From a virus (lineage: Duplodnaviria; Heunggongvirae; Uroviricota; Caudoviricetes): DNA of 15,479 nucleotides. The translations under genes were made by a program, and so were the position numbers. Position 1 is the first letter of the stretch. Each line of letters opens with the position of its first letter. Under the pieces are notes generated by a model. The model ran no database searches. It saw only the letters and a program-made list of their open reading frames with translations, and was not told the origin of the DNA. Below are positions 1 to 14,261 of this stretch, in pieces. The stretch is taken from the IMG/VR virus record IMGVR_UViG_2695420487_000018. One strand, written 5' to 3'.

Positions 1-165
1 ATGGCAAAGCCGATCATCACGCTCAATGGCCTAAAAATCGTCATTATGTTGGGAATGCTGGTCATTATTCTCTGCGGTATCCGTTTTGCCGCCGAGATCA
101 TCGTGCCGTTTATTCTCGCATTATTTATTGCTGTTATATATAACTTATTTCACATAACACGTTGA
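1..165 (+). pseudogene. tqsA: Truncated 5' part of a host inner-membrane transporter gene (TqsA/YdgG-like); about 45 host-like codons, then 9 codons of AT-rich island DNA to a TGA
   Basis: ATG at 1; translation [45 protein letters not shown]... is a hydrophobic N-terminus I recognise from memory as E. coli-type TqsA (not searched). Composition switches abruptly to AT-rich at about 135-140. Confidence 0.45.
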
Positions 166-462
166 TTTAATTAAATAATTTTCACCACAAAAAGTGCCAA
201 AAATCGCAAAATGACTACACCAGTGACTACACCGTTCGGTGCACTGTATGAAACAACGTGGAACAAATAGACACAAGAAATATACAGGCGGATCATCTTT
301 CCAGGGGGAAGCGCACCAATTCATGAGGGGCGTTAATGTCGATATGGGGATCCCCACCTACCGGAATTTTTTTCCGGTTAAACGTTAATCAGGCTGGTGG
401 GCTTTACCTGTTCGGTAGGAGTTATGATTATCGTAATACCTTTCCCCCAATGGGGTAAAAGC

Positions 463-609
463 ATCAACCGTAACGAAAGTCGTTATGGTTGCCACTGATA
501 CCCCAAATTTGGGTATCACGAGTAAGACCCAAAATCTGGGTGTTACTCTTACTACCCAAACTACGGGTAGTTTCCGTAGTTTCATGGTCGAGTTGCAGAT
601 CTGCAACTC
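463..609. repeat. Array of dyad-symmetric sites: AACCGTAACG-N5-CGTTATGGTT (463-487), three ACCC-N7-GGGT sites centred at 507, 534 and 561 (27-bp spacing), and a perfect 20-bp palindrome GAGTTGCAGATCTGCAACTC (590-609)
   Basis: Read directly from the sequence; arms GATACCC/GGGTATC and CTACCC/GGGTAG are perfect reverse complements. Confidence 0.6.
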
Positions 610-902
610 CCCCATTAACCACAGGCGAATTTCCGCCTTCGGTCATTCCTTAATCATCTGCGTAATCATAATGATTATTCAGCAAGCGCAATTTTGCGCT
701 TTGCTTAAAGTTCAGCGAGTTACCGCGCCGACTTCCTCAAATTGAGGTTTCCGAAAATATCAGCGGGTTAGCGATTAAGCTGATCATTAATTAAACTGCG
801 AAAATTTCGTAGTTTGTGACTGTCTTTCAGGCAGCTTGTTAACAGTCCTCAGAAGCGAGGGATGTAGCCACCCATTTTTGGTCCGTCGGGAATATCAACC
901 AG

Positions 903-1184
903 TTACCGCCGCAACCGCTCCGGCTTCTTCCAGTGGTACGTTATTTTCTCCTTCTCCCGATACATCTCCACGCGGCGACGGTAGGCCAGCAACTCAAGAA
1001 CTCTGGTTCGTATGTTGCGCATATCCACGCCATTAAGTTCTATACCATCACGGCGCATCACCTCAGCAACAACACGCGCATAGTTTTCGGCTGTCACGCT
1101 GTCCGGCTGCGTGGCCTGTTCGTCAGCCTGCTGGCTGATTCCAGAGACGCGGCGGATTAATCGCAGTATTTCGGCTTCTGTCAT
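903..1184 (-). CDS. Hypothetical protein (93 aa), last gene of the packaging operon
   Basis: ORF starts 14 nt after the TerL stop, with GAGG about 9 nt upstream of the ATG; no family recognised. Confidence 0.5.
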   Translation of the reverse strand: MTEAEILRLIRRVSGISQQADEQATQPDSVTAENYARVVAEVMRRDGIELNGVDMRNIRTRVLELLAYRRRVEMYREKEKITYHWKKPERLRR

Positions 1185-1197
1185 GCTGCTGACCTCA

Positions 1198-2859
1198 TTA
1201 CACCCCGCTAAATTCTTCCAGTTTCTGGCGGTGGCTGTCGCTTATATCAAAAGCAAAATCCTCATGCTCTGCCTGGAATGTACCAAACGCCATCAGCGCC
1301 GCTACGCTCGGGTCTATCTTGTTCGGTGATTTTTTCTTGTTCGGCTTGATATTGGCGTTCGCGTCACTCTGCATCACGACGTTACTCATCGACCAGGACA
1401 ACACCGGATCGCCACGATGCACAATCACCCTGCGGTTAACAAAAACTTCGAACGATTTCGCCGCCGGACTGAATCTGAGGTAGGTTTGCGGGAACGGCTC
1501 CACCTCAAAACCTGCCCCCTGTAATTGCGTTCTGAGATGCGTGGCGTTCCACGTATCAAAGCCCACCAGCCTGATATTAAATTTCTCCGCGTCCTGCATG
1601 ATGTCATCTCTGATCCGGTCGTAATCAATGCAGTCGCCAGGTGTTGTGCGTATCCAGCCTGCTTTAGCCCACTGACGATAGACAGCGCGGTTTTTATTGG
1701 CGGGGTTCTGTAGCTGGAACTCCGGCAGATAATGACGGGAAACCAGCATAATGGTTTTACCTACCGGAAAGGCATAGCACACGCTGGAAATATCGCTTGT
1801 GGATGATAAATCCAGCCCCGCGTAACACTCCTGGCCGTGTAAATCTTCCTCCGTGAACGTTCCGGCACACTCAGCCCATGCGCCGTTACCCATCCACGGG
1901 GTAGTCCCCTGACACCAGATATTAAATCGCTTTGTCATCATCTCCACCCACTGCGACGGAATACCCCGCGCTTTCTGGATGGTTGAGGCCAGTTTTTCAC
2001 GATCCACGGAAACATCAATATTAGGGTTCGCCTTTATCCACATCGCCGGATCATCAACCTCGTTTTCGTCGTCCAGTTCGTAAATCAGTACAAAAATTGA
2101 ATCGTTAACCTCTTCGCCGTCCAGGATCTGGCAGCAATAATCATAGTGCTGCTTACAGGCTGAAACGACGTTGCTGCCTGATGTGGTAATGGCAAATAAC
2201 AGCCCTTCGGGACGTGCGCCCATCCCCAGCTCAAGCGCGGAATAAACGCCGTTATCGGGGTGCAAGTGGTATTCGTCCACGATGGAAAGGCTTGGGTTTG
2301 TGCCCTCGATGGTTGCCGCTTTTGCTGCCAGCGGCTTTAACAGGCTGTTGCTTTTCGGGTGTATCACCTTATGCGCCTGAATATTCACCCGCCTGCGTAA
2401 CGGTCGGGATAAAAGGCACATCTGACGCGCATCATCAAAGACGATCCGCGCCTGGTCACGGCTCACCGCTGCGGTGTAGATATCCTGCTGACCGTTCTCC
2501 ATAATCAGAAACCAGTTAGCCAGAATCGCGGCGGTCGTGGATTTCGCATTTTTGCGCGGCACTTCGATAAAGGCGCTCGTATATTTGCGCCGTCCGGTGG
2601 CCTTAACCTTAAAGCCGAGGATGCACGCAAAGGCGAACTGCTGCCACGGCTCCAGCTCAATGGGTCTGCCACGCATCGGTCCTTTTACGTGCGGGCACAC
2701 CCTGGAAAAGGCAATAAACCGCTCCACAACCTCACGATCGAACGTGTAAAGGGGGCTTTTAAGGTCCGAAAAGTACCGTTTAACAGCCTGTTTTAACCGT
2801 TTACAGGCCGGAATTTTGCCCGTTTTTACGTCTTCTGCGTACTTATTCCAGGCGGTCAA
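1198..2859 (-). CDS. terL: Terminase large subunit (HK97/Terminase_1-like)
   Basis: 553-aa ORF; N-terminal ATPase region with P-loop-like VPRKNAKST, C-terminal nuclease-like region; start overlaps the TerS 3' end by 17 nt. Confidence 0.9.
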   Translation of the reverse strand: MTAWNKYAEDVKTGKIPACKRLKQAVKRYFSDLKSPLYTFDREVVERFIAFSRVCPHVKGPMRGRPIELEPWQQFAFACILGFKVKATGRRKYTSAFIEVPRKNAKSTTAAILANWFLIMENGQQDIYTAAVSRDQARIVFDDARQMCLLSRPLRRRVNIQAHKVIHPKSNSLLKPLAAKAATIEGTNPSLSIVDEYHLHPDNGVYSALELGMGARPEGLLFAITTSGSNVVSACKQHYDYCCQILDGEEVNDSIFVLIYELDDENEVDDPAMWIKANPNIDVSVDREKLASTIQKARGIPSQWVEMMTKRFNIWCQGTTPWMGNGAWAECAGTFTEEDLHGQECYAGLDLSSTSDISSVCYAFPVGKTIMLVSRHYLPEFQLQNPANKNRAVYRQWAKAGWIRTTPGDCIDYDRIRDDIMQDAEKFNIRLVGFDTWNATHLRTQLQGAGFEVEPFPQTYLRFSPAAKSFEVFVNRRVIVHRGDPVLSWSMSNVVMQSDANANIKPNKKKSPNKIDPSVAALMAFGTFQAEHEDFAFDISDSHRQKLEEFSGV

Positions 2860-3199
2860 GCTCGTCCTCTTCTTCTGTTTCCGGTGGATTTTTACGGCGG
2901 CTTATCGGGTCAAAACCGAGCAAGGAGGCCATTTTTATCATCACTCTTTCCGCGTCGGATTTCGCGCTTAATGCGGGGTTTCTGCTCTCTCCGCCCTGAC
3001 TGTTAACAATGCTGAACCCGCGCGCCGCAAGGTCTGCGACGGCTTTCCGGTATATCGAGTAATTGACGCAATACAGTTCCAGATTACTCCAGTCGGCGGG
3101 AGTCAGGTCACCCCGTTCCGCAAGCGGCCGCGATTTTTCCCGCCACTGCTTCACGGCGATATCATCCAGGTAGGCGGGGGCTTTCGGTGGTCTTGCCAT
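2843..3199 (-). CDS. terS: Terminase small subunit (P27-family-like)
   Basis: 118-aa ORF directly upstream of and overlapping TerL; acidic C-terminal tail EEEDELDRLE; size and position typical of HK97-type TerS. Confidence 0.75.
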   Translation of the reverse strand: MARPPKAPAYLDDIAVKQWREKSRPLAERGDLTPADWSNLELYCVNYSIYRKAVADLAARGFSIVNSQGGESRNPALSAKSDAERVMIKMASLLGFDPISRRKNPPETEEEDELDRLE

Positions 3200-3322
3200 G
3201 CTTATTTTTTCGCCAGATTATTTTTCAAAAAATTCCCGTGCATAAAAATTTGAGGAGGCGTTCGGTGCCCGGCGGGGTCGGGTTTGTCCTGAAAACGCCC
3301 CCCACCCCGTCATACAGCCTCA

Positions 3323-3505
3323 TCAGCGATTGCGGAAACATTCCATAACCTCGCGGTCACGGTCGGTTAATCGCTTCGCTGTGATGCGTTCTGCGCGTCC
3401 TGACGCTTTATCTTTATGCCCTGTTTCCTGTGTCTTCCATGCGTCACGCTGCCTTATAAGTCCACGGATAAGGCGGTTTTGTTCCCGCTCATTCATCAGC
3501 GTCAT
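3323..3505 (-). CDS. Small basic hypothetical protein (about 57-60 aa) between HNH and TerS
   Basis: ATG at 3505 or 3496 lies just upstream of, and out of frame with, the HNH stop (3489-3491), suggesting coupling; translation M(TLM)NEREQNRLIRGLIRQRDAWKT... is Arg/Lys-rich. Only the 3' part of the longer 3323..3727 track ORF is used; weak SD. Confidence 0.3.
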   Translation of the reverse strand: MTLMNEREQNRLIRGLIRQRDAWKTQETGHKDKASGRAERITAKRLTDRDREVMECFRNR

Positions 3506-3929
3506 ACATCCAGTTATTGCGGTTAGCGGCCCGTTCTTCCTCTTCATGAAATCCACCTGCGGCACGCTTGCTTTTTGTTGCCGGATCAAGCCATTTCGTT
3601 TTCTGGTTATGACACGCCTGGCACAATGGTTGATGGTTCCATTCGGGCCAGAAGAGAACATCATCACCGCCATTAATCGGGATAATGTGATCCACCACCA
3701 CGGCGGGCGTATATATCCCCTTCTCAAGGCATCGCACGCATAACGGGTTTTTACTCAGATACATGGCGCGGTATTTGTCCCACTGTCTGGAGTACCCACG
3801 CGCGCGGCGGTGTCCTCGTCTGGCATCCTCTGCACGCCATGCCGCCCGCCTGTGCTCCTCACACTTGCCGGACTTCACGCGCCTGTTACAGCCTGGTTCT
3901 GTGCATCGTCTTAATGGTTGCCACGGCAT
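3489..3929 (-). CDS. HNH endonuclease (terminase-associated)
   Basis: 146-aa ORF with Cys pairs and the HNH core ...VVDHIIPINGGDD...NHQPLCQACHNQKT; start overlaps the upstream gene stop (TGATG). Confidence 0.85.
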   Translation of the reverse strand: MPWQPLRRCTEPGCNRRVKSGKCEEHRRAAWRAEDARRGHRRARGYSRQWDKYRAMYLSKNPLCVRCLEKGIYTPAVVVDHIIPINGGDDVLFWPEWNHQPLCQACHNQKTKWLDPATKSKRAAGGFHEEEERAANRNNWMYDADE

Positions 3930-4225
3930 CAGTACACCCCCACATCACGGTAAGCCGTCCAGAGCGCGCCAATCGTCATGGGTACGCGCGTTTTTGCGTT
4001 ATCCGCTACCAGCTGGCGATTCTCGTACAGGTGAGCGATAAACATCATGCAGCCAATCTTTATGGCTGGCGTGAACTCCAGCCCGTCATCAAAGCGCCTG
4101 CCTATATGTATCTGGCACGCCTCAAGCGATGCGGCAATGTATCCGCTGATTAACTGGTCTTCCTCGTCGCCATCGATGCGGCAATGGAGTTTCACTTCTT
4201 CCAGGGTGATAAGTTCTTCTGTCAT
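3929..4225 (-). CDS. Head-tail connector protein (gp6-like family)
   Basis: 98-aa ORF; N-terminal LITLEEVKLHCRIDGDEEDQLI resembles the gp6-like connector signature; ATGA overlap with the upstream gene. Confidence 0.65.
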   Translation of the reverse strand: MTEELITLEEVKLHCRIDGDEEDQLISGYIAASLEACQIHIGRRFDDGLEFTPAIKIGCMMFIAHLYENRQLVADNAKTRVPMTIGALWTAYRDVGVY

Positions 4226-4560
4226 TTTTCCGCGCCCTCACGACAAAGAATTTCAAGGCGTGTCCTGGCGGCATCCGGCAGCGGCTGCCCGATGATATTC
4301 AGTACACGCCCCGCCAGCGGCCCCGTATTGACCTTTATCCGGCTGGTGGCGTTGATGTCCTTCCTGTAGCGTATCCATATCCTTACCGTTCCAGTCGCCA
4401 GTTCTGCACCCGATGAAATGGCCTCCTTGCTGCTGATCATGTTCACGCTTGCCCAGAGTGTGTGACCGTCCACCCACGTTTCGAGTATTTCGCCGGTTAT
4501 ATCCCTGGTCTGTTTCAGGGTCTGAATCGTTACCCTGTCACGCAGTCGCCCTATGTTCAT
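4222..4560 (-). CDS. Head closure / head-tail joining protein (Phage_H_T_join-like)
   Basis: Track ORF 4222..4602; likely start is the ATG at 4560, overlapping the portal stop (ATGA). About 112 aa, MNIGRLRDRVTIQ...VRIWIRYR... resembles head-tail joining proteins. Confidence 0.6.
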   Translation of the reverse strand: MNIGRLRDRVTIQTLKQTRDITGEILETWVDGHTLWASVNMISSKEAISSGAELATGTVRIWIRYRKDINATSRIKVNTGPLAGRVLNIIGQPLPDAARTRLEILCREGAEK

Positions 4561-5768
4561 TCCGGTTTTTCTCCCTCGCTGATTTTTACTTCCTGTTTCC
4601 ATGCCTGGCTGAACTCATCACCACCATCACGCGGGGACAGCCCTTCACGTTCGCGGGCTTCGTTCGGGCACATAACGCCGGATTTGATGCCGCGTTCATA
4701 GGTGGCAAAGCGTTCGCCAGGTGTGGCCCGTAACAGGTCCGCGCTGTCAAACTCCACCTGATACCGGATACCAGGTACAGGTGAGGCCACCAGCAGGGCG
4801 TTTTTTATCTGCTGCTCAAAGTTCGCCAGCCACGGGCGCATCGTCATGGTGAGAAATGCGCGGCTTGCCTCGCTGAAATTGCTGTAGGTGCTGTTGCTGT
4901 ATTCCTGCAAAAAAATCGGCGAGACGTTGAACATTCGGGCGATGTCTTCAATGGTGAAGCGACGGGAGGCCAGCCATTCAGCATCCTGATTACTCATGCC
5001 CAGCTGCTGATAGCTCATACCCCCTTCAAGGATGGGCGTTTTTCCGGCGTTTCTGGCCCCTTTGTAGCGTTCCAGTGCGGCTAATGCCTGTTTGCCCTTC
5101 ACGCCGTCCAGCCATTCGCCTGACGTGATAACCCCTGCCGCCATCATGCCATCACGCATCACGCTCGCGCCGTGGCGTTGTTGGGCCAGCCCAAGCCCCA
5201 GCGATTCGCGGCAGATGGTTACAGGTGAGCGCCCCATAAAACCGTCATCTGTGGAGTAACGAAGGTGGAGAACCTCCCACGGTAAATAGTTGCGGGTGTT
5301 TCCGGTGTAGGCGTCAGTGATGCAGTAGCGCCAGTTATGCTCACCTGTCTGCTCCACGTTCACCGACTGCGGCGGGTAAGGATGTAAAGCCACCGGAAAA
5401 CCATCACGCCCCCACCGAATCACCGCATAAGCATTACCGTTTAACAGGCAGTGGCGGATCATCATTCGCTTAAACTGGTAGGGGGTTTGCCACGCGTTCG
5501 GGCGCTCGTTGAGGATGTGATCGACCGGATGAGAATCAAGCCACTCGCGGGCCTCCTTCCCCTTCTCATTGCGTACCAGGTACAGGTAACACGGCATGGT
5601 AGCCACCGCCTCAGAGATGACCGTCACGACGTTCATGACGGCGGGCAGTGATTCCGCTGTCCCCGATGATACGTACTCACCCGCCCCCGTGTTCGATGTG
5701 CCGGCCAGCGCCATAAACTCATCAAGCGTCATGCTGCGCTGCTCTTTTTTTCTTCTGAAAGGCCACAT
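4557..5768 (-). CDS. Portal protein (HK97 family)
   Basis: 403-aa ORF directly after the prohead protease gene; size and sequence character of HK97-type portals. Confidence 0.85.
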   Translation of the reverse strand: MWPFRRKKEQRSMTLDEFMALAGTSNTGAGEYVSSGTAESLPAVMNVVTVISEAVATMPCYLYLVRNEKGKEAREWLDSHPVDHILNERPNAWQTPYQFKRMMIRHCLLNGNAYAVIRWGRDGFPVALHPYPPQSVNVEQTGEHNWRYCITDAYTGNTRNYLPWEVLHLRYSTDDGFMGRSPVTICRESLGLGLAQQRHGASVMRDGMMAAGVITSGEWLDGVKGKQALAALERYKGARNAGKTPILEGGMSYQQLGMSNQDAEWLASRRFTIEDIARMFNVSPIFLQEYSNSTYSNFSEASRAFLTMTMRPWLANFEQQIKNALLVASPVPGIRYQVEFDSADLLRATPGERFATYERGIKSGVMCPNEAREREGLSPRDGGDEFSQAWKQEVKISEGEKPE

Positions 5769-5769
5769 A

Positions 5770-6327
5770 TCACACCCCCGCTAAATCCGCCCACCAGCGG
5801 CGATTATCCGCACGCGGCATTTTTTCGGGGTGCTGCTCGTACAGGGAGCGGCGGGCCAGCTCCACGCCGGAATCAGGGTAAGCCGGTACGGATGTAACGG
5901 TAATTTCGTACAGTTCCGCCACCAGCACGGTGCGCACGCATGGATCTGTTGTGGTATCCCATACATCCTTACGGGAGCGAAAGCCAAAGCTCATGCCGGA
6001 TATATCACCACGTTTAACCAGTTCGATAACGTCCCGCCCTGTGCTGGTATCCGGTGGGATCAGTTCAAAACGTAACCCTGTGTCATCCTCTTCCAGTCTC
6101 AGCGTACCGGAACGGGTGCGCCCCAGTAACATGCTGTGGTCATGCTCATACAGGCCGCGAACGTCATTACCCACCGCAAGCCATTCAGTAAACGCCCCCC
6201 GCTGGAATTTTTCGTAAAACTCCCCCCATAGCAGCTCTGAAAGGTTATCCCAGCGAACAACGTAGCCTGTAAGCGTGTTGCTGCCGCTGGTGGTGATTTC
6301 CGATGACCGGATTTCCATACTCATCAT
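5770..6327 (-). CDS. Prohead maturation protease (HK97 family, S78-like)
   Basis: 185-aa ORF between capsid and portal genes; N-terminal ...TLTGYVVRWDN... and internal EHD motif typical of HK97 prohead proteases. Confidence 0.8.
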   Translation of the reverse strand: MMSMEIRSSEITTSGSNTLTGYVVRWDNLSELLWGEFYEKFQRGAFTEWLAVGNDVRGLYEHDHSMLLGRTRSGTLRLEEDDTGLRFELIPPDTSTGRDVIELVKRGDISGMSFGFRSRKDVWDTTTDPCVRTVLVAELYEITVTSVPAYPDSGVELARRSLYEQHPEKMPRADNRRWWADLAGV

Positions 6328-6381
6328 AATTTTTTCACCTGTAAAACAGAGAAGGGGCTTTTTAGCCCCTTCGGTGTGCTG

Positions 6382-7539
6382 TTAATCGTCGTCCTGCGGC
6401 AGTTCCAGAATCTTTATAGCGTTCGAATCCACCACGCCACCGCCTAAATATTTCTGCGTGAAAATTTTGATAAAGCCCGGCTCTGTCAGGTTGTCCGGTC
6501 TGGTGCGCACGCCCGTTTCATGATCAACGATGTAATAACCGCGTTTGAAGTCACCCAGGGCGATAACGTTATCCGGCATAAATTCCAGATACTCCACCGG
6601 AAGCCCCAGCAACGTATCAGGATCACCCGCCTGTAAACGGTCGCGCCAGATGTAATCGCCGTTCGCGTTCTTCACCTTCTGAAGTTTTGCCGCCGTCGTG
6701 GAGTTAACCACCCAGACCGCGTTTTTGCGGTATTTTTTACGTAATGCAAATTTCAGGTCGATCAGCGGGTCCGCAGATGTCCACGCCAGAGATTCGGAAG
6801 GTTTAATTACCTGCAACGTACCAAAATCACGCTCTTTGTCGTTCTTCTCTGCACGGGGTACGGATAAAAAACCTTTTGCTTTTTTGTCACCGTCGCCCAC
6901 AACCAGATCGCTTTCTTCGGTTTCCGTGAAGGTGTCGCCAATCTCACCCGTCAGCCATGAAAGGATGTCCACATCGGAAAAATCCACGATTTCCTGTGTG
7001 GTGCGCGGGTACGCATAGACCGGATACAGCTTAATGCTCACCTCGTTAATCTGCGGGGTGCTGGTCTGTTCGCGTGCCTTACCCTCTTCACCGTGGTTAA
7101 CGGTCGCACCGCCAGCGGAAACAAGCTGCTTAAACTCGTTGCTGCTGATTTTCTTCACGGTACAGATGCGGCGCATGGTGGATTCATCCGCCAGCATTCG
7201 CATGATTTCGGTGTTCAGCTCGGGGATAACGGTATAACCACCATCAGCGGGAACGCCTGTACTTAATGCGCGGGTTTCACCTGTCAGGATGTAGTTGCGT
7301 AGTTCTGCGGGGTCAGTGGTCTGACTGCTTTTACCTGGCTTGCTGCGCTCTTCGTCTGCAATGGCTTCAAGGCGGGAAATGTCTTTATCGAGGGATTCAG
7401 CTTTAGCGCGTAATTCGTCAAATTTTGCGCCCTCAGCATCGTTAAGACTGCGGTTTTCTTTTTCCGCGTTCTCCAGCATGTCGCGCATCTGATTTTTAAT
7501 GGCGGTTTTCTGCTGGCGTAATTCGATTATTCTCGGCAT
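6382..7539 (-). CDS. Major capsid protein (HK97 fold) with N-terminal coiled-coil delta/scaffold domain
   Basis: 385-aa ORF; first ~100 aa are coiled-coil-like (IIELRQQKTAIKNQMRDMLENAEKENRSL...), followed by a capsid-like body. Confidence 0.85.
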   Translation of the reverse strand: MPRIIELRQQKTAIKNQMRDMLENAEKENRSLNDAEGAKFDELRAKAESLDKDISRLEAIADEERSKPGKSSQTTDPAELRNYILTGETRALSTGVPADGGYTVIPELNTEIMRMLADESTMRRICTVKKISSNEFKQLVSAGGATVNHGEEGKAREQTSTPQINEVSIKLYPVYAYPRTTQEIVDFSDVDILSWLTGEIGDTFTETEESDLVVGDGDKKAKGFLSVPRAEKNDKERDFGTLQVIKPSESLAWTSADPLIDLKFALRKKYRKNAVWVVNSTTAAKLQKVKNANGDYIWRDRLQAGDPDTLLGLPVEYLEFMPDNVIALGDFKRGYYIVDHETGVRTRPDNLTEPGFIKIFTQKYLGGGVVDSNAIKILELPQDDD

Positions 7540-7546
7540 AAAAAAA

Positions 7547-7576
7547 GTCCTGGGGTTAAGTAAGGAACTCCAGGAC
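7547..7576 (-). promoter_or_regulatory. Hairpin immediately upstream of the capsid gene start; its 3' arm contains the only SD-like AGGA and is followed by U7 then AUG
   Basis: Minus-strand RNA GUCCUGG-AGUU-CCUUACUU-AACC-CCAGGAC-UUUUUUU-AUG; 7-bp perfect stem plus 3 further pairs after one mismatch. Confidence 0.45.
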
Positions 7577-7629
7577 GCGGCAAAAACTCAACCGTTTTTC
7601 ATAAGGAAATCAGCAATCGCACCGTTCGT

Positions 7630-7677
7630 TTTCCCGCCTGGTAATGAATATTGGCGAGAACATTAACAGGCGGGAAA
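7630..7677 (-). other. Long imperfect hairpin in the capsid-operon leader (11-bp perfect stem TTTCCCGCCTG/CAGGCGGGAAA plus 5 inner pairs, 14-nt loop)
   Basis: Read directly from the sequence; no U-run follows on either strand. Confidence 0.5.
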
Positions 7678-7754
7678 GTGGCCCCAGCGTCCTGGCACCA
7701 CGGGCGAGAATAATCATGATTCAGTTCGGGTAAAATATGCCGATCCGCTCAGTG

Positions 7755-7779
7755 AACAACGTGGAACAACCACGAACAA
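7755..7779. promoter_or_regulatory. 25-bp dyad motif AACAACGTGGAACAACCACGAACAA (core CGTGG-AACAA-CCACG) upstream of the capsid operon; a second copy lies at 14170-14194 and a half-copy at 252-266
   Basis: Exact or near-exact matches found by eye (1 mismatch between the two full copies); both lie inside runs of 10-bp-phased ACAA/TGTT. Confidence 0.55.
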
Positions 7780-7796
7780 ATAATTTACAAAACATG

Positions 7797-7820
7797 ACAA
7801 AAAGCCGGATTGCTCCGGCT
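7797..7820 (-). terminator. Rho-independent terminator ending the replication/regulatory operon
   Basis: Minus-strand RNA AGCCGGA-GCAA-UCCGGCU followed by UUUUUGU, 7 nt after the stop of the 7827..8099 gene. Confidence 0.65.
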
Positions 7821-7826
7821 GTGTGA

Positions 7827-8099
7827 TTATCTGTCCTGGTAATTTCGCCATATTTCATCACCAGCACCATCCATACCCATTTCGGCATAAGTGCGATCGA
7901 CCGCCTTTTTCAGGTCTCCGTAATTATCCGGCGGCTCCGGTGGCCTCTGTGCCTTCCTGGAACATTCCAGCCGTCGCATCGTGATGTGATGCCGTTCCTT
8001 GTCTGTCTCCACCAGTTGCATGACTTCACCCCATCGCGCCGACGCTCTCCGGTAAAAGCCTTTCGCCTCCAGTTCTTCCGCTATGCGGTCATGTACCAT
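7827..8099 (-). CDS. Small hypothetical protein (about 90 aa); possibly a PerC/ANR-like regulator (uncertain)
   Basis: Track ORF 7827..8108 starts at GTG; the ATG at 8099 has GGGGTGGGGA upstream. Motif AEELEAKGFYRRASARWGEVM is reminiscent of PerC/ANR-type proteins, from memory only. Confidence 0.55.
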   Translation of the reverse strand: MVHDRIAEELEAKGFYRRASARWGEVMQLVETDKERHHITMRRLECSRKAQRPPEPPDNYGDLKKAVDRTYAEMGMDGAGDEIWRNYQDR

Positions 8100-8111
8100 C
8101 GTCCCCACCCC

Positions 8112-8522
8112 TCAGAACGGAATATCATCACCGTAAGGGTCATCGCCTTCCGCTGGTGGCTGATTACCCTGTGTGCCTGTGGTCTTGCGTCTGTTCCCGC
8201 CAGGACGTGCCGCACGGGCACTGATTACGCTGTCTGCAATAACCTGATACCCCCGCCGCGTTTCCCCGTTCTGTCCGGTCCACTGGCTTACCTGCATCGT
8301 GCCGGATACGCTGGCAACATCGCCTTTTTGATGTTTAGCCAGGAAATCGGCCTGTTTGCCAAATGCGATAACCGATAACCATAACGTCGCCTGTCCGTCA
8401 TGTGCCTGGCTGCATGGCAGCGATACCGCCATACGCGCCAGCGTCATCGGTGTTCCCTTGCTGGTCTGTTTTACCTGCGGGTCGTCCACCAGCCGCCCGT
8501 AAGCCGCTATCTGTGCTGTCAT
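8112..8522 (-). CDS. ssb: Single-stranded DNA-binding protein
   Basis: 136-aa ORF; OB-fold-like N-terminal region, Gly/Pro/Gln-rich linker, acidic C-terminal tail ending DDIPF (SSB signature); ATGA overlap with the upstream gene. Confidence 0.85.
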   Translation of the reverse strand: MTAQIAAYGRLVDDPQVKQTSKGTPMTLARMAVSLPCSQAHDGQATLWLSVIAFGKQADFLAKHQKGDVASVSGTMQVSQWTGQNGETRRGYQVIADSVISARAARPGGNRRKTTGTQGNQPPAEGDDPYGDDIPF

Positions 8523-8770
8523 GCTGTCTGCTCTCCGGTTTTAACGTTGATGGTTGTTACCTGTTCCGCTTCGGCAATCTCCCGTTCTGTCAACGTGGCA
8601 AAGTTTGCCGCTGCTGTGGTCATGAATGCGCTTATCAGGTCGGGATGTTCCTTCGCGTATCCTTCCCCTACATGTCGGTCTATCGTTCTGATTGCCACCT
8701 TTAAGGCCAGCTCTGTTATATCTAACGCTTTATATTTCGGCTCTGTTCTGTCTCTGCGTGTTCTGGTCAT
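8519..8770 (-). CDS. Hypothetical protein (about 83 aa) immediately downstream of the origin
   Basis: Track ORF 8519..8803; the ATG at 8770 has GAGGTGG upstream, and the earlier ATG lies in the AT-rich origin. Confidence 0.5.
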   Translation of the reverse strand: MTRTRRDRTEPKYKALDITELALKVAIRTIDRHVGEGYAKEHPDLISAFMTTAAANFATLTEREIAEAEQVTTINVKTGEQTA

Positions 8771-8803
8771 TTGCCACCTCAATTTATATATATATAGAAA
8801 CAT

Positions 8804-9120
8804 GTGCGGGTTATGCGGGTTATTGGGTTATCTTAGCGTGCTAACCATTTTTTATCCTTTTATATCAGCATGTTGCAAAACGCCCTGTTTATTATTTGCT
8901 CACCACATAACCCGCAAAACGCTCAAAATAACCCGCAAACGGGGTTTTTTCTGCGGGTTACGCATGACTGTCCGGTGTTACTTCAGTTATTCGCCTGCGG
9001 GTTATAATCGTGCTTTTGCGGGTTATAAATGCCCTTTTGCGGGTTACGTGCGGGTTATTGATTTCCTTTATATTCATGCGCTTAATACACTTATACACAG
9101 GATAACCCGCATAACCCGCA
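8804..9120. repeat. Iteron-type replication origin: about 12 copies of GCGGGTTA(T/C) (8 forward, 4 reverse) plus AT-rich tracts
   Basis: Forward copies at 8806, 8815, 8953, 8997, 9018, 9039, 9050 (and degenerate 8824); reverse ATAACCCGC at 8907, 8928, 9102, 9111; AT-rich 8780-8800 and 8840-8900; directly downstream of the rep gene. Confidence 0.8.
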
Positions 9121-9142
9121 ATTTTTTTCCTCACACAGGGGA

Positions 9143-11275
9143 TTAATCTTCATCATCAGGCTGGAACATCAGCACGTAAAAAACATGCTGCTTACCCCCA
9201 ATCTTGCCCAGCGCCTTTTTTTTGTATCGGCGATCGCTTCCCTTCTCCAGCATTCCGGCAGCATCCAGGGCACGCGCAAAATGCGCCGGATTAAATCCCT
9301 TCGCTATCTCACTCTCAAACACGTGCGGGAACGTGTAATAGCGCATCTCGTCATCTTCGTTGCGAATGCTCCCTTTTCTGTATCCGGCAAGCTCTTTAAT
9401 CGGTAAATCACGCTCATCTGTATTGGGGTACGGAAGGTAGCGGCTAAACCCAAACGACGACAAAAACGCCTCAGCCTGTTCAACCATCTGTTTAAATTCC
9501 CTGTTACCTGTGCCGAACTCCTTCACCCAGGCATTAAAGTTATGCTGTATCGCGTCGCGGCATTCCTGCACGACCCAGCCAGTTACATGACCGGAAAGCA
9601 CAAGCGCGGCCTCCAGTATGGCGAAACGTTCACCCACGCGGTGGACCTGCTCGCCGTAACTCTCCGGTATCAGGTTGCGCCACCGTTCGCGGCATTCCCT
9701 TACCGTGTCCTTTGCCTCCTGCTGGTGGCCTGCCAGCCATTTAACCCACTCACGACCCGCCGCCCCGTGATTTGCTGTCCAGGCATCCTTTAACGCGTCA
9801 GCATGTTCCTTACCGTTGCTGTATTCGTGAAATTTCGTGGCTTTTTCCATCGGAACGTTAAGCAGTCGGACAAGCTGCCCCGCCTTAACTTTTATCCCCT
9901 CACTTTTGAGGAATGTCTCAACGTCCATTTCTCCGGTGCTGATTGCCACCGTTCGCCAGTGTTTGATCTCCCTGTTGCCGCCATCCTTCGCCCCCTGCAA
10001 TTTCCCTGAACCGTTAAACAGCGTATAAGCAGACGTTGACACTTCCCGCGCATTTCCGGCCTGGCCTATCTCATCCAGTGGTAAAAGCCCGTCATTATGG
10101 GCCTCGGCCTCATTGGCAATACCTAACGCCGTGCCGTACCAGGTCAGCCGCTGCGCGTCCGGCTCTCCCCATAAACTTGATGCGATGTTCTGCGTGGTGG
10201 TCTTACCTGCCGATGACTGTTCGAAAAGATGCACCCCGAAGCCGTCAGCACCCACAAGGCCAATTAAAGGCGCTGCCAGTGACGTTGCCACACCCAGTAT
10301 CATTGAGGCATTACCGCCAGCCAGCCGCGCCACGCTGTCGCGCCAGCCATCCGCCGTGCCCGCCACGGAATAACCGTTAATCGCGGCGCTTTTTCCGGTA
10401 AACAGGATCGGTTTTTCAGATTCACCAATGATCGAACCGTCCGGCATGATGTACGCGCCAAAATGCCAGCCCGTTGTTGTGCTTAACTGCCATTCCTCAT
10501 GGCTTCCGCTTAACTGCATCCAGTCCGCCAGGATTGCCCTGTATTTGCCGTTGGTTGTCACGTTCAGCCCGTGATCTTTAAGTAACCGCCAGCCGTCACG
10601 GTCGCCGATACCACCACACGGGATCGCCATTGTGATGACTTTATGGTTTGCGGTTTTTTTCCAGCGCATCACGCGGTAATGCTCTTTACCGATCGTCCCC
10701 GTTCCCAGTAGTTCAAGCGGAGAACATAACCACGTCTCAGGCCGGATAATTTCGCCTGACTGCTTATCCACTTTGGGCGTTACCCAGAAAACACCATCGG
10801 CGCGACTTTCAACGCGTGGCTTTAATTCGTCATCGCTATGGCTTCCGGTATCTTTTTTCTTTACCGGAAACTCAATAACCAGACCATCAGAAAGATTCTG
10901 CCGCTCACGGGCCAGATATTCGCGCCAGTTCTCCACCTTCTGACCGTGCATTCCTTCGGGGTAAAAATTTGCGTCCTGAATATCTGCCGCCGCCAGCTTC
11001 TGACCAATCTTTTTGGTCTCCACCAAATCCAGTTCTCCGGCCTGGTACAGCCTTACGCGTTTTTTTCCATCCGGAACAATTTTCAGCGCATCAAGTTCGG
11101 CAAGCTGATTTGGCCCAAGCCACACAGGCGGAACATTATCGCCGGATGCGGGGCCATCCTGCTCCTGCCATTGTTTCGCGTGCGACCAGGCATCACTACC
11201 CGCGAAAATAATTACCTCTGTGTCTTTGTGTTTTATTCCGCGTGGCTGTTTTTTTACGTTCGGTGCCAGTTTCAT
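9143..11275 (-). CDS. Replication initiator, primase/helicase-type (P-loop NTPase; DUF927/D5-like family suspected)
   Basis: 710-aa ORF; Walker A-like FEQSSAGKTT; position immediately upstream of the iterons matches pri-rep genes of satellites. Confidence 0.8.
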   Translation of the reverse strand: MKLAPNVKKQPRGIKHKDTEVIIFAGSDAWSHAKQWQEQDGPASGDNVPPVWLGPNQLAELDALKIVPDGKKRVRLYQAGELDLVETKKIGQKLAAADIQDANFYPEGMHGQKVENWREYLARERQNLSDGLVIEFPVKKKDTGSHSDDELKPRVESRADGVFWVTPKVDKQSGEIIRPETWLCSPLELLGTGTIGKEHYRVMRWKKTANHKVITMAIPCGGIGDRDGWRLLKDHGLNVTTNGKYRAILADWMQLSGSHEEWQLSTTTGWHFGAYIMPDGSIIGESEKPILFTGKSAAINGYSVAGTADGWRDSVARLAGGNASMILGVATSLAAPLIGLVGADGFGVHLFEQSSAGKTTTQNIASSLWGEPDAQRLTWYGTALGIANEAEAHNDGLLPLDEIGQAGNAREVSTSAYTLFNGSGKLQGAKDGGNREIKHWRTVAISTGEMDVETFLKSEGIKVKAGQLVRLLNVPMEKATKFHEYSNGKEHADALKDAWTANHGAAGREWVKWLAGHQQEAKDTVRECRERWRNLIPESYGEQVHRVGERFAILEAALVLSGHVTGWVVQECRDAIQHNFNAWVKEFGTGNREFKQMVEQAEAFLSSFGFSRYLPYPNTDERDLPIKELAGYRKGSIRNEDDEMRYYTFPHVFESEIAKGFNPAHFARALDAAGMLEKGSDRRYKKKALGKIGGKQHVFYVLMFQPDDED

Positions 11276-11571
11276 TTCTTACCCCTGAATACGTTAAGCA
11301 TCTTTTTTATTTCCTGAATATTGGCGCGTGCTTTCTCCCTGCTGGTTGGTTTACTGCGGGGCGCTGCCTGTACCAGAGAAAAATCACGCCGGAACTGATA
11401 AACAGGCATCACGCAATCATATTCGTAGCCTTCACGATGGTAGGTTACGCGCCGTTCCTCCACGCCCTTAATCATTACCGTGCCGCCGTACTGGTCGCGG
11501 TAAATATCCCCGCGCATGAATTTAGTGCGAGTTTTGCCGCTGTCAGTTAAGCCAGGATATTTAAGTTTCAT
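11272..11571 (-). CDS. Hypothetical protein (99 aa)
   Basis: ORF ends overlapping the rep start; GGGGA upstream of the ATG. Confidence 0.55.
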   Translation of the reverse strand: MKLKYPGLTDSGKTRTKFMRGDIYRDQYGGTVMIKGVEERRVTYHREGYEYDCVMPVYQFRRDFSLVQAAPRSKPTSREKARANIQEIKKMLNVFRGKK

Positions 11572-11576
11572 TATTT

Positions 11577-11840
11577 TTATTCCCCGATAGCGTGACCTGA
11601 TAAGCCGTTAATCTTCTCTGATATGCTCTCTATTTTGCTGGTTGAACTATCCAGTAATTCAGAAACGGCTAATATTAATCTTGCAGTTGATTCATCGCGT
11701 TCATTATTCACCAGCGACTGAAGCCACATATTCATTACTTCGTTTGCTGCGTTGTTTAAAGATATTGCGCTGTTGGCAAGGCTTCTTAATTCACTGGTCG
11801 CCAGTTTATTATTTTTCATAGCGTTCGGCTCTCTCATCAA
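11577..11840 (-). CDS. Hypothetical small helical protein (80-87 aa), AT-rich gene
   Basis: ORF track; alternative start at 11819; local GC visibly lower than the island average. Confidence 0.5.
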   Translation of the reverse strand: MMREPNAMKNNKLATSELRSLANSAISLNNAANEVMNMWLQSLVNNERDESTARLILAVSELLDSSTSKIESISEKINGLSGHAIGE

Positions 11841-12000
11841 TTAACCACAGCGCAACACTTCCTGACAGTTTTGCCAGAAGGCCAGCTAATGCGGATATAT
11901 CACCATCATTTAATTTATCAGGGTATACCTCAAGAAGGCGGCAAATAATTTCTGTCTGGTGCGCACGTTCAGCGGCTTCGTGTAATGTAATTTCCTTCAT
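11809..12000 (-). CDS. Hypothetical small protein (63 aa), AT-rich gene
   Basis: ATG at 12000 overlaps the upstream gene stop (TAATG). Confidence 0.5.
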   Translation of the reverse strand: MKEITLHEAAERAHQTEIICRLLEVYPDKLNDGDISALAGLLAKLSGSVALWLIDERAERYEK

Positions 12001-12185
12001 TAATGCACCTCTTTTAATTCATACACTGCTGAAATAATGACTTGTGATAAGCCATATTCTGATGATTCGCTTCTCACCGCAGCAATAGCCGTCTGAACAT
12101 TAACAGCCTTCACATTCTGAGCGATACCAATTGTGTGGCCTAGTGGGTTAACAGCGCTGGCAAATACACGGAAGGTTTTAAGCAC
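12000..12185 (-). CDS. Hypothetical small protein (about 62 aa)
   Basis: Track ORF 12000..12215 begins at TTG; the GTG at 12185 has AGGGGG 7 nt upstream and overlaps the upstream stop. Confidence 0.4.
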   Translation of the reverse strand: MLKTFRVFASAVNPLGHTIGIAQNVKAVNVQTAIAAVRSESSEYGLSQVIISAVYELKEVH

Positions 12186-12642
12186 GGCACACCCCCTGAC
12201 GAATACGGGCGACAAAAATCAGATGTGCGTGCGGCAGCTGGGCGCGGGCTTCGCGTTCAGTGGCTGCGGTAACGGTGTAAATATCAATGCTGCTGTGGTG
12301 GCACTGCATAAAGCGCCAGACAAAGTAAGGGCGTGCGGATACAGCCATGTGAAAGGCTCCCAGATGAATTTTAAGGAGTCTCGCTACTACGCTGCTAAAC
12401 ATGGTGGCGAGACGTAACAGGGTTAGCAGACTGGTCATCTGGAAACCAGCGAGCACAAAGGCTCCCCCGTTACGCCCCGCCATAATGCGGGTATGGGTAG
12501 GTTTACGGACACAAAAAAACCGCTTATCGGATGTGGGCGGCTGTCCGCCAGATGTATTCAGGCTGCTAAACCCGGTCGCCATGTGGGCGACGGGGGAAGC
12601 ATACAGCCCCGTGATAATTTTTTGCAAGCGGTTTTTACGCAT
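12178..12642 (-). CDS. Hypothetical protein; C-terminal about 55 aa paralogous to the 12635..12907 product
   Basis: Track ORF 12178..12684; ATG at 12642. C-terminal motifs FVWRF, TEREAR, ARIRQG are shared with the upstream gene, with third-position differences (GTC/GTG, CGC/CGT). Confidence 0.45.
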   Translation of the reverse strand: MRKNRLQKIITGLYASPVAHMATGFSSLNTSGGQPPTSDKRFFCVRKPTHTRIMAGRNGGAFVLAGFQMTSLLTLLRLATMFSSVVARLLKIHLGAFHMAVSARPYFVWRFMQCHHSSIDIYTVTAATEREARAQLPHAHLIFVARIRQGVCRA

Positions 12643-12907
12643 GATGTGACCCCTGACGAATACGGGCGGCAAATACAGCAACACAACCTGACGGGCAACG
12701 GCTACGCGCTTCGCGTTCCGTCCAGGCGGTTACGTGGATGATTTGAGATTCTCCGGCACTCAGTGCCAGAAAACGCCACACAAAGGCCGTTTGTGTGTGT
12801 ACAAGGTGTGGTATATGATTTACAGCAACCATAACGGCTCCTAGTTTACGTTGTTGGTTAGAAGCCCTGCGAGTGGTAACGACACTTGCGGGGCTTTGTC
12901 TTTTCAT
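12635..12907 (-). CDS. Hypothetical small protein (65-90 aa), first gene of the leftward operon; paralog of the next gene's C-terminal domain
   Basis: ATG at 12907 (AAGG upstream) or 12832 (AGGAG 5 nt upstream); same conserved motifs as the downstream paralog. Confidence 0.5.
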   Translation of the reverse strand: MKRQSPASVVTTRRASNQQRKLGAVMVAVNHIPHLVHTQTAFVWRFLALSAGESQIIHVTAWTEREARSRCPSGCVAVFAARIRQGSHHA

Positions 12908-12923
12908 CGATTACCTTGATAAA

Positions 12924-13006
12924 GGTGTCAGCCACTATATTAGTAACGGGTGTCAGCCACGTCAATAGTGTTTTTCCGTTTTCTTGTGTGTATACTGTCA
13001 GCCACC
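12924..13006. promoter_or_regulatory. Divergent promoter/operator region: leftward promoter TTGACG-N17-TAATAT (minus strand), rightward -10 TATACT, and three direct repeats TGTCAGCCAC
   Basis: Minus-strand -35 is rc of 12960-12965 and -10 is rc of 12937-12942 with a 17-nt spacer. Repeats at 12926-12935, 12951-12960 and 12996-13005 overlap promoter elements on both strands. Confidence 0.6.
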
Positions 13007-13026
13007 TAATAACGAGGAAATCAGAT

Positions 13027-13206
13027 ATGGCAACAAAAGCAGTTAATGCAAAATCCAAAAAGCTTGAGGCTCGAGTACCACACGCAATAGCTGATGCTGT
13101 AGAAAATTTAAAGGAAGATGGCGAAAGTACAGGGCAATTTATCGTTTCGGCACTTGAAGGCGAGATCAAACGCCGCCAGCGCCGCAAGGCCAAAGAATCA
13201 GAATAA
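13027..13206 (+). CDS. Small DNA-binding protein, ribbon-helix-helix-like (59 aa); candidate regulator of the switch
   Basis: GAGGA 8 nt upstream of the ATG; pattern KKLEARVPHAIADAVENLKEDGESTGQFIVSALEGEI fits a beta-strand plus two helices; basic C-terminal tail. Confidence 0.55.
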   Translation: MATKAVNAKSKKLEARVPHAIADAVENLKEDGESTGQFIVSALEGEIKRRQRRKAKESE

Positions 13207-13248
13207 TCACTATCAGCGCCGTGGTGTGAGGTATTACGGCGCATTGCT

Positions 13249-13437
13249 ATGCAGGACAACACAATGACCGATAAAGAATTGACCAAAACATTATCACCGG
13301 CACGGAAAAGACGGCGCAGAAAGATAGAGCATGAATCAGAAAGATTCGCACCATGTGCTTTTGCCCTTGAGCAATTCCTTAAAGAGTACAGGGAAAAGCG
13401 CTCATTGCAGGTATGGCAACGAACTGAACCAGACTGA
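13249..13437 (+). CDS. Possible small basic protein (62 aa)
   Basis: ORF between the RHH-like gene and the plus-strand terminator; no convincing SD. Confidence 0.25.
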   Translation: MQDNTMTDKELTKTLSPARKRRRRKIEHESERFAPCAFALEQFLKEYREKRSLQVWQRTEPD

Positions 13438-13532
13438 TTGCATTGCCCACCAGCCTGATAGCGGCTATCATCCCCGTGCTTATGTTTGGGATCACACACA
13501 CAAACGGCGCAGCGGGTTATCTGTTCAGAAAG

Positions 13533-13560
13533 GCGGCTCCATTTCGGGGCCGCTTTTTTT
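13533..13560 (+). terminator. Rho-independent terminator of the rightward unit
   Basis: GCGGCTCC-ATTTC-GGGGCCGC (8-bp stem with one G-U) followed by TTTTTTT. Confidence 0.7.
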
Positions 13561-13706
13561 ATACCTGAAAAACCCCAATTTTGTTGTTTTTCAGTTTCAC
13601 CAGGGCGAACGAATCCCCGCCCACGTTCTGGCGTATATTCAATCTTCATGGTTATAGCTCTGTGTTCAGATGATTGATGTGTGGCGGCTGCGTGCCGCCA
13701 GCGTGA

Positions 13707-13895
13707 TTAATGAACTGCCTTGCAGCTATCCTTCCAGGCCAGAACCTCGGATAAAGACCAGCCAACGGAACGACCGCCAAGTTTACGACGTGATGGGAAT
13801 TGTCCGGCCTTTTCCAGGCGGTAGCGACACGTACGGCTAAGGCCGGTTAGTTTTTCGCATTCTTTTTCACGTATAAACCGATCAGTGCTTAACAC
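13707..13895 (-). CDS. alpA: AlpA-family transcriptional regulator (excisionase-like HTH)
   Basis: 62-aa ORF ...KECEKLTGLSRTCRYRLEKAGQFPSRRKLGGRSVGWSLSEVLAWK... matches the AlpA pattern; GTG start with AGGGGGG 6 nt upstream; sits next to int. Confidence 0.8.
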   Translation of the reverse strand: MLSTDRFIREKECEKLTGLSRTCRYRLEKAGQFPSRRKLGGRSVGWSLSEVLAWKDSCKAVH

Positions 13896-14047
13896 TATTG
13901 CCCCCCCTTTCGTTTCTTAAAGAGTCATCAGGTGTCTTATTGTGTCGTATTGTTCCCGCTAGAGTGATGAATGGCAAATATTGAGGATGTATGATTTACA
14001 GAAAATGAAACAGTAAGAATAAAATCTTTTAAATTCATGTTAATACA

Positions 14048-14094
14048 AAGGCATAAAATATTGTTTCATGCCTTTTTTCTCGCTCTTTAAAGAG
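14048..14094. other. Hairpin AAGGCAT-N13-ATGCCTT followed by TTTTCT on the plus strand, then a perfect 12-bp palindrome CTCTTTAAAGAG (14083-14094)
   Basis: Read directly from the sequence; lies between int and alpA; the strand on which it would terminate is ambiguous. Confidence 0.4.
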
Positions 14095-14169
14095 TGATTC
14101 GCTAGTGTATAAAAAACCAGTGACACATTAAAAATCAGCCACTTATAAATCTGTATGCTTTTTCGCCTC

Positions 14170-14220
14170 TTGTTCGTGGTTGTTCCACATTGTTGCTCAT
14201 TGTTGCACGTTGTATCTGTT
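14170..14220. promoter_or_regulatory. Second copy of the 25-bp dyad motif (rc AACAATGTGGAACAACCACGAACAA) within five 10-bp-phased TGTT units, upstream of alpA
   Basis: 14171-14220 reads tgttcgtggt/tgttccacat/tgttgctcat/tgttgcacgt/tgtatctgtt; one mismatch relative to the 7755-7779 copy. Confidence 0.55.
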
Positions 14221-14261
14221 CGCATATACAGTATGCGCATACTGAAAAAACACGAAAAAAA

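Follow-up and report, generated by a model that had tools for sequence, protein, structure and literature searches.

A Probable Left Attachment Junction of a cf-PICI Satellite Inside the tqsA Gene

Background

Two PICIs, EcCI042 and EcCIK1516, have been listed with tqsA as their attachment gene and ATAACAGCA as their core, and the same list includes a ycfD-phoQ attachment site with the core GGACATATTT (Fillol-Salom et al. 2018, ISME J, PMC6092414 Table S1). The phoQ-roxA island of strain EDL933 is EcCIEDL933, the prototype cf-PICI, which helper phages induce via alpA and whose transfer uses small capsids of its own together with helper tails (Alqurainy et al., 10.1101/2022.09.08.507074). It lies between phoQ and roxA (ycfD) and interrupts no gene, and the core that we derive for it here, AAATATGTCC, has the published GGACATATTT as its reverse complement. 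The cf-PICIs have four of six attB sites in common with classical PICIs (10.1101/2022.09.08.507074).

The gene tqsA has also appeared in broader surveys. It is named among the core genes that prophages interrupt when they integrate (Bobay et al. 2013, PMC3603311), and elements of 11, 15, and 16 kb have been mapped in E. coli tqsA and proposed as a candidate for "regulated gene integrity" (Mageeney et al. 2020, NAR, PMC7192596). These TIGER islands (Eco282.16.tqsA, Eco557.15.tqsA, and Eco33.11.tqsA; 11-16 kb) are scored as disrupting a domain of tqsA without restoring it. They are software-catalogued candidates, with no satellite classification, and are most likely the same elements as the islands described below. 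The prophages at mlrA (yehV), wrbA, and yecE, as well as Listeria comK/phi10403S, likewise have integrases that target the inside of a conserved protein gene, which exact excision restores; these elements are, however, full prophages, and a reversible regulatory role has been shown for comK.

Here, we consider a stretch of viral DNA of 15,479 nucleotides (hereafter, the window), and in particular its first 165 positions, which we read as the attL of a cf-PICI placed by its own tyrosine integrase at a dedicated site inside tqsA (probability about 0.92). The island shares its host gene and its 9-bp core, TGCTGTTAT (of which ATAACAGCA is the reverse complement), with EcCI042 and EcCIK1516, but these are classical PICIs of ~11 kb without their own portal, protease, TerL, or connectors, whereas the window island is ~15 kb long and carries a capsid-forming module. 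E. coli 042 has an annotated protein, CBG34596.1, that is identical to the 405-aa Int of the window. In gene order and in its packaging, replication, and alpA modules, the window island resembles EcCIEDL933, with 96.5% nucleotide identity over window positions 156-15476. The match begins only at 156, and the two islands differ in their integrases, in ~30 bp of attP around the overlap, and in their arm repeats; the induction and transfer described above are those of EcCIEDL933.

The attachment site, the core, the gene disruption, and the island family are, therefore, all already in print, and what we report is a correct rediscovery that leaves the current understanding unchanged. The modest addition is a matched pair of integrase and attP alleles.

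The Island and Its Genes

The following features were recorded for the body of the island (window coordinates, strand, description).

138..15479, genes on the - strand: cf-PICI satellite body, int through TerL and a 93-aa ORF (Pfam/PHROG scans)
903..7539, -: packaging/capsid module (Pfam, PHROG)
903-1184, -: 93-aa ORF
1198-2859, -: TerL (Pfam)
2843-3199, -: TerS (Pfam)
3489-3929, -: HNH (Pfam)
3929-4225, -: gp6-like connector (Pfam)
4222-4602, -: head completion (Pfam)
4557-5768, -: portal (Pfam)
5770-6327, -: S78 prohead protease (Pfam)
6382-7539, -: major capsid (Pfam)
7827-8108: PerC (Pfam)
8112-8522: SSB (Pfam)
9143..11275, -: replication protein, DUF927 primase type (Pfam)
13707..13895, -: alpA (Pfam Phage_AlpA, E = 5e-17)
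14262..15479, -: tyrosine integrase, tqsA-specific allele (Pfam Arm-DNA-bind_3, Phage_int_M, Phage_integrase)

The capsid, protease, portal, head completion, connector, HNH, TerS, and TerL genes all score above the Pfam cut-offs (8/8), and Pfam also identifies Int, AlpA, and the replication modules (DUF927 primase and SSB). The island has no lysis genes and no complete tail module: neither tail nor lysis genes were found among the window ORFs with Pfam and PHROG, nor does PGAP annotate any in sister islands. The island portion of the window measures 15.3 kb, and the core-to-core length of eight related islands is 14.7-15.4 kb, both within the size expected of a cf-PICI (about 10-18 kb). Judged by every family criterion that sequence can address (listed in 10.1101/2025.02.11.637232), the window island is a cf-PICI. 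Its alpA gene corresponds to the regulator by whose activation helper phages induce Gram-negative PICIs (10.1101/2022.09.08.507074).

The integrase gene occupies the right end of the island and encodes the arm-binding, central, and catalytic domains. In the window, it starts at an internal ATG; the PGAP start lies 12 nt further on.

Two regions of the island vary among relatives. The replication module (9143-11275, -) is mosaic in comparison with loci L001 and L006-L011, whereas int, att, and the packaging genes are common to them; the DUF927 primase variant is that of the window and EDL933 islands. A 263-aa ORF (12858-13649, -) is identical to an EDL933 "hypothetical protein" over its first 147 residues and then diverges with gaps, and it has no Pfam, PHROG, or PADLOC match. 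Its richness in Cys, Ser, and Arg and the frame shift between it and the EDL933 version suggest that it may be a spurious or decaying frame rather than a genuine gene. In sister islands, this slot is annotated as a partial Icd-like protein, YlcI/YnfO, or a Rha regulator.

The Left Junction

Four features describe the left end of the window.

1..137, +: 5' fragment of tqsA (ydgG, AI-2 exporter), codons 1-45 plus 2 nt, with residues 1-46 unchanged
1..165, +: chimeric 54-aa ORF, 46 TqsA residues (H1 and the first half of H2), then YNLFHITR and TGA
129..137, +: attL core TGCTGTTAT, sole copy in the window, with the same 9 bp at attR beyond the window
138..161, +: island-side core-proximal segment, which together with the overlap makes up the ~30-bp attP stretch that differs from the phoQ-roxA sister island

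Positions 1-165 form an ORF of 54 codons, from ATG to TGA (163-165). The initial annotation had proposed that about 135 nt of it were host-like, from a tqsA-like gene, and that nine codons of island DNA then led to the stop. Alignment with K-12 tqsA (b1601, "autoinducer 2 exporter") bears this out, with identity at 137 of 137 nucleotides over window 1-137, the first mismatches at 138-140, and divergence at random level from 145 onward; the identity ends with the core (129-137). Residues 1-46 of the ORF are therefore TqsA. Codons 47-54 (YNLFHITR) and the TGA are AT-rich island DNA, and residue N48 matches TqsA by coincidence. The GC content of the first 300 nt of the window is 38.7%.

Pfam has no match for the 54-aa product but places AI-2E_transport at aa 14-328 of full TqsA. 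It is a gene fragment and not a member of the AI-2E transporter family, whose full domain has ~327 positions. As had been suspected, it is not the normal form of the gene: island-free genomes encode the full 344-aa TqsA. In carriers, PGAP labels the 5' piece "pheromone autoinducer 2 transporter, missing C-terminus."

One might ask whether the ORF nonetheless encodes a small membrane protein with a function of its own, perhaps as a dominant-negative peptide or in the service of the island, and is not debris. It still has the start of tqsA, the upstream host gene context in carriers is the same as in K-12, and it contains H1, the helix that makes the main pentamer contact (PMC9475539). Its sequence is also identical across many carriers, the exact peptide being present on at least 1000 public contigs in public protein sets, but this conservation follows from that of tqsA and attP themselves. 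The eight-residue tail is whatever the attP arm happens to encode and changes to YNLLHITR in the O26 and O103 islands, no Pfam family recognizes the 54-aa product, and carriers have no full-length TqsA on which it could act. We regard a functional peptide as scarcely credible and treat the ORF as the 5' remnant of an interrupted gene.

The Right Junction and the Restored Gene

The window ends at the int start codon, and attR lies outside it; attR was therefore read from near-identical islands in complete genomes, that is, from islands 99.3% identical to the window in genomes other than the window's own. In one of these, locus L002 of an O157:H7 strain (99.3% nucleotide identity to the window island, Int 100% identical), a second copy of TGCTGTTAT is found at 18171-18179, directly before the 3' part of tqsA. 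The near-identical islands of complete genomes show the remainder of tqsA resuming ~190 bp past int, behind this second core. Thus, int lies at the far end of the island, next to the tqsA 3' part, as the initial annotation had placed it, and the direct repeat that it had suggested looking for at both junctions is present at attL and, in the near-identical islands, at attR.

Both cores occupy the same positions in all eight carriers sampled, which come from different lineages (PCN033, O157:H7, O55:H7, O26, O103, two human isolates, and one swine isolate). When the flanks are joined in silico through one core, each of the eight yields a 1035-nt ORF with no internal stop that encodes an intact 344-aa TqsA, with 0-4 amino-acid differences from K-12. 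The joining also reproduces the K-12 attB (empty site ...TTTATTGCTGTTATTCTTAACCC...) in 8/8, so excision via the core would restore the gene exactly, and neither tqsA fragment has decayed in any of them (8/8). When the attR sequence is used as a query against genomes that have only tqsA, the match starts exactly at the T of TGCTGTTAT. Strand exchange must, on these junctions, take place within the 9-bp core.

Just past the end of the window, PGAP annotates a 60-aa "hypothetical protein," WP_001332680 (L002 17983-18165, +). Its ORF runs antisense to the start of int, crosses the arm-type repeats, and has its stop in the tqsA frame two codons before the core. We considered it as an island-borne replacement for, or fusion to, the TqsA N-terminus and rejected it, as it is hydrophilic, overlaps the arm repeats, and meets a TGA before the core. 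The annotation is probably an artefact of the attR arm.

Use of the Site Among E. coli Genomes

The tqsA sequence, including its 5' piece, is present in 5423 of 5426 complete E. coli genomes and uninterrupted at the site in 5169 of them. The int/arm/core/tqsA junction of attR occurs in 246 of the 5426, and the window attL with its left arm in 209. The site is split in ~254 genomes, ~97% of which (246/~254) have this int/attR. The islands at tqsA carry at least four replication modules (DUF927, "DNA primase family," DUF5906, and RepA helicase) behind a common int and att. Some O157:H7 strains have the island and some do not.

A different reading would be a one-off, off-target insertion, made by an integrase that is promiscuous or whose usual target lies elsewhere. 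It could draw on the loss of a core gene, an outcome that integrases tend to avoid, and on the fact that a closely related integrase (92% identical) uses a different, intergenic site. The junction, however, is the same to the base in 246 genomes of many lineages and is common to islands with four different replication modules, and the tqsA Int and attP form a distinct allele with 32 fixed differences and an overlap sequence of their own (see below). The genome counts refute an accident, to which we give next to no probability. With 5169 intact sites and 246 with the junction, tqsA is a dedicated attB, and it is used repeatedly.

ARAGORN found no tRNA or tmRNA, so this is not an attachment site of the tRNA type; the island lies, as first noted, inside the 5' part of a protein gene (codons 43-46 of 344). 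A search of genome contigs with Int returned a single locus, a phoQ-roxA-type island of Shigella flexneri, and thus gave no cross-species view of the tqsA site. In strain G1/2 (L006 5940-7695), a separate prophage with its own integrase splits ynfG, ~11 kb upstream of tqsA, which makes ynfG another protein-gene attachment site in the vicinity.

Attachment Site and Integrase Alleles

Between the tqsA and phoQ-roxA islands, we compared window 14262-15479 and 129-233 with L003 17031-18260, 2971-3080, and 18280-18441. The attP sequences are as follows (hyphens separate the segments).

tqsA type, reconstructed: ...AAAAAACACTAAATGATAAAA-TGCTGTT-ATATATA-ACTTATTTCACATAACACG-TTGATTTAATTAAA...
EDL933: ...AAAAAACACTAATTGATAAAA-TATGTCC-TTTTATC-ACCACAGCAAGGCAACCCA-TTGATTTAATTAAA...

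The EDL933 attP has 7 bp (TATGTCC) flanked by GATAAAA and TTTTATC, which make a perfect inverted repeat. Such an arrangement is the classic layout of core-binding sites flanking an overlap region. By analogy with this sister attP, we infer that the 7-bp overlap of the tqsA type would be TGCTGTT (129-135), although its right half-site, ATATATA, matches the EDL933 inverted repeat at only four of seven positions. From the overlap on, a stretch of ~30 bp of attP has been replaced at equal length between the two islands.

One further feature lies on the left arm.

212..233 (212-221 and 224-233), +: two direct arm-type repeats, TGACTACACC x2 (P' arm)

The same pair of TGACTACACC repeats is found on the int-side arm (L002 18022-18045), giving two repeats on each arm of attP; they are presumed to be binding sites for the N-terminal arm-binding domain of Int. 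In the sister island, their place is taken by TTAACTACACC, the difference lying in the bases before TACACC (GTGAC in the tqsA type vs TTAAC in the phoQ-roxA type). Integrase domains, core repeats, and arm repeats are thus all of the kind expected for site-specific integration by an arm-type, P4/lambda-like tyrosine integrase.

The integrases of the two types are 92% identical. Comparison of nine sequences from tqsA sites with two from phoQ sites gives 32 fixed differences, of which 19 are in residues 1-66 (the arm-binding domain), 12 in 119-259, and one after 260; the nine tqsA-site sequences are a single allele, with all 32 in common (9/9). Thus, the arm repeats, the ~30 core-proximal bp of attP, and the DNA-recognition parts of Int have changed in concert, in islands that otherwise differ little. 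To judge from this comparison, the two islands are a natural matched pair for a specificity switch, and with 31 of 32 Int changes falling before residue 260, the tqsA/phoQ-roxA pair could show how a tyrosine integrase is retargeted. Some O157:H7 records contain two places that match the island, a hint that a single genome may hold both alleles.

Consequence for TqsA

We propose the following course of events. The N-terminal domain of Int would bind the arm-type repeats (TGACTACACC x2 on each arm), and the protein would also bind core sites around the 7-bp overlap TGCTGTT; it would then exchange strands between attP and attB at tqsA codons 43-46, and TGCTGTTAT would be duplicated. In the split gene, the 5' piece reads eight island codons to a stop and the 3' piece lies behind int, and functional TqsA would be lacking for as long as the island stays in place. 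Upon activation of alpA by a helper phage, the island would excise and tqsA would be restored through the core.

The break at codons 43-46 of 344 falls within the single Pfam AI-2E_transport domain (aa 14-328). In the cryo-EM structure of TqsA (PDB 7NB6), H1 (Thr7-Phe29) provides the main pentamer contact on the cytoplasmic side and H2 runs from Ala31 to Trp57 (PMC9475539), so a break at residue 46 is in the middle of H2. Upstream, the stub keeps the original tqsA start. In the frame of the 3' piece, a TGA stands two codons ahead of the core, and no nearby start precedes GTG52/ATG55; a product truncated to begin at one of these two codons may be made. Scanning attR for promoters revealed no promoter-like site directed into the 3' fragment, which is weak evidence, and no replacement fragment for tqsA is present in the island. 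The initial annotation had suggested that the island may inactivate or re-route a quorum-signal exporter. The first half of this stands as a strong inference, in that the disrupted domain, the mid-H2 break, and the lack of a replacement all indicate that TqsA function would be lost while the island is resident; nothing supports the second half. Since mdtJI and tqsA are divergently transcribed, and tqsA and pntAB converge, polar effects of the island on these neighbours should not be expected.

As a result of this island, ~4.5% of complete E. coli genomes, including O157:H7, O55:H7, O26, and O103 strains, are without an intact AI-2 exporter, which should be kept in mind when quorum-sensing or biofilm phenotypes are compared between strains. 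For annotation, the two tqsA fragments should be treated as one interrupted gene.

It has been proposed that such insertions provide regulated gene integrity, or "active lysogeny," and tqsA is among 19 new candidates of this kind (Mageeney 2020, PMC7192596); reversible excision and re-integration would here switch AI-2 export off and on to the use of the host or the satellite, in the manner of phi10403S at Listeria comK. Several of our observations agree with it, namely an integrase allele dedicated to the site, a conserved domain that is disrupted and not restored by an attP-borne fragment, and tqsA fragments that are undecayed in 8/8 carriers, from which excision would be exact. Undecayed fragments fit recent acquisition equally well, however, given that only some O157:H7 strains have the island. 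Gene control is not a family trait, as intergenic sites are used by other members (PMC6092414). Induction of Gram-negative PICIs needs activation of alpA by a helper phage (10.1101/2022.09.08.507074) and normally ends in lysis, from which a restored tqsA would not benefit the cell. We therefore consider a host switch to be highly unlikely. Excision upon alpA activation by a helper phage is known for the sister island EcCIEDL933 (10.1101/2022.09.08.507074), and if excision is tied to this step, restoration of tqsA would be a by-product of satellite induction. A speculative and highly improbable variant is that the choice of tqsA is not neutral for the satellite, in that blocking AI-2 export during residence and restoring it upon excision could alter quorum sensing, biofilm formation, or prophage induction in ways that favour an encounter with a helper phage.

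Noncoding Elements of the Island

The noncoding left arm at window 440-625 (core element ~492-614) folds into four consecutive stem-loops, with RNA fold z-scores of -9.1 on the + strand and -9.8 on the - strand. The element has no Rfam match (a search of 1-1000 at E <= 1 found nothing), and the left arm at 138-900 has no match in the phage collection. Copies of its ~123-nt core, 73-94% identical, stand at the int-distal end of other E. coli PICIs, in every case immediately after an ORF of ~93 aa. Among these islands are classical PICIs at clpS, a cf-PICI at thiM, and an island embedded in a prophage. The EDL933 island lacks the core and matches this region at window 430-493 only. Some form of the region, unannotated, is present in 1132 of 5426 genomes. 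Covariation amounts to two compensated pairs, with several broken pairs in the most divergent copy, and the long invariant stretches suggest that a protein-binding or DNA-level role is as likely as one in RNA.

A C4 antisense RNA (RF01695) was identified in the early region at 12400-12487 (-), scoring 72.7 bits against a gathering score of 45, and is the sole Rfam match in the whole window at the gathering threshold. It adjoins ORFs that PGAP calls Icd-like in sister islands, and the combination resembles a P1/P7-type c4-icd immunity cassette inside a satellite.
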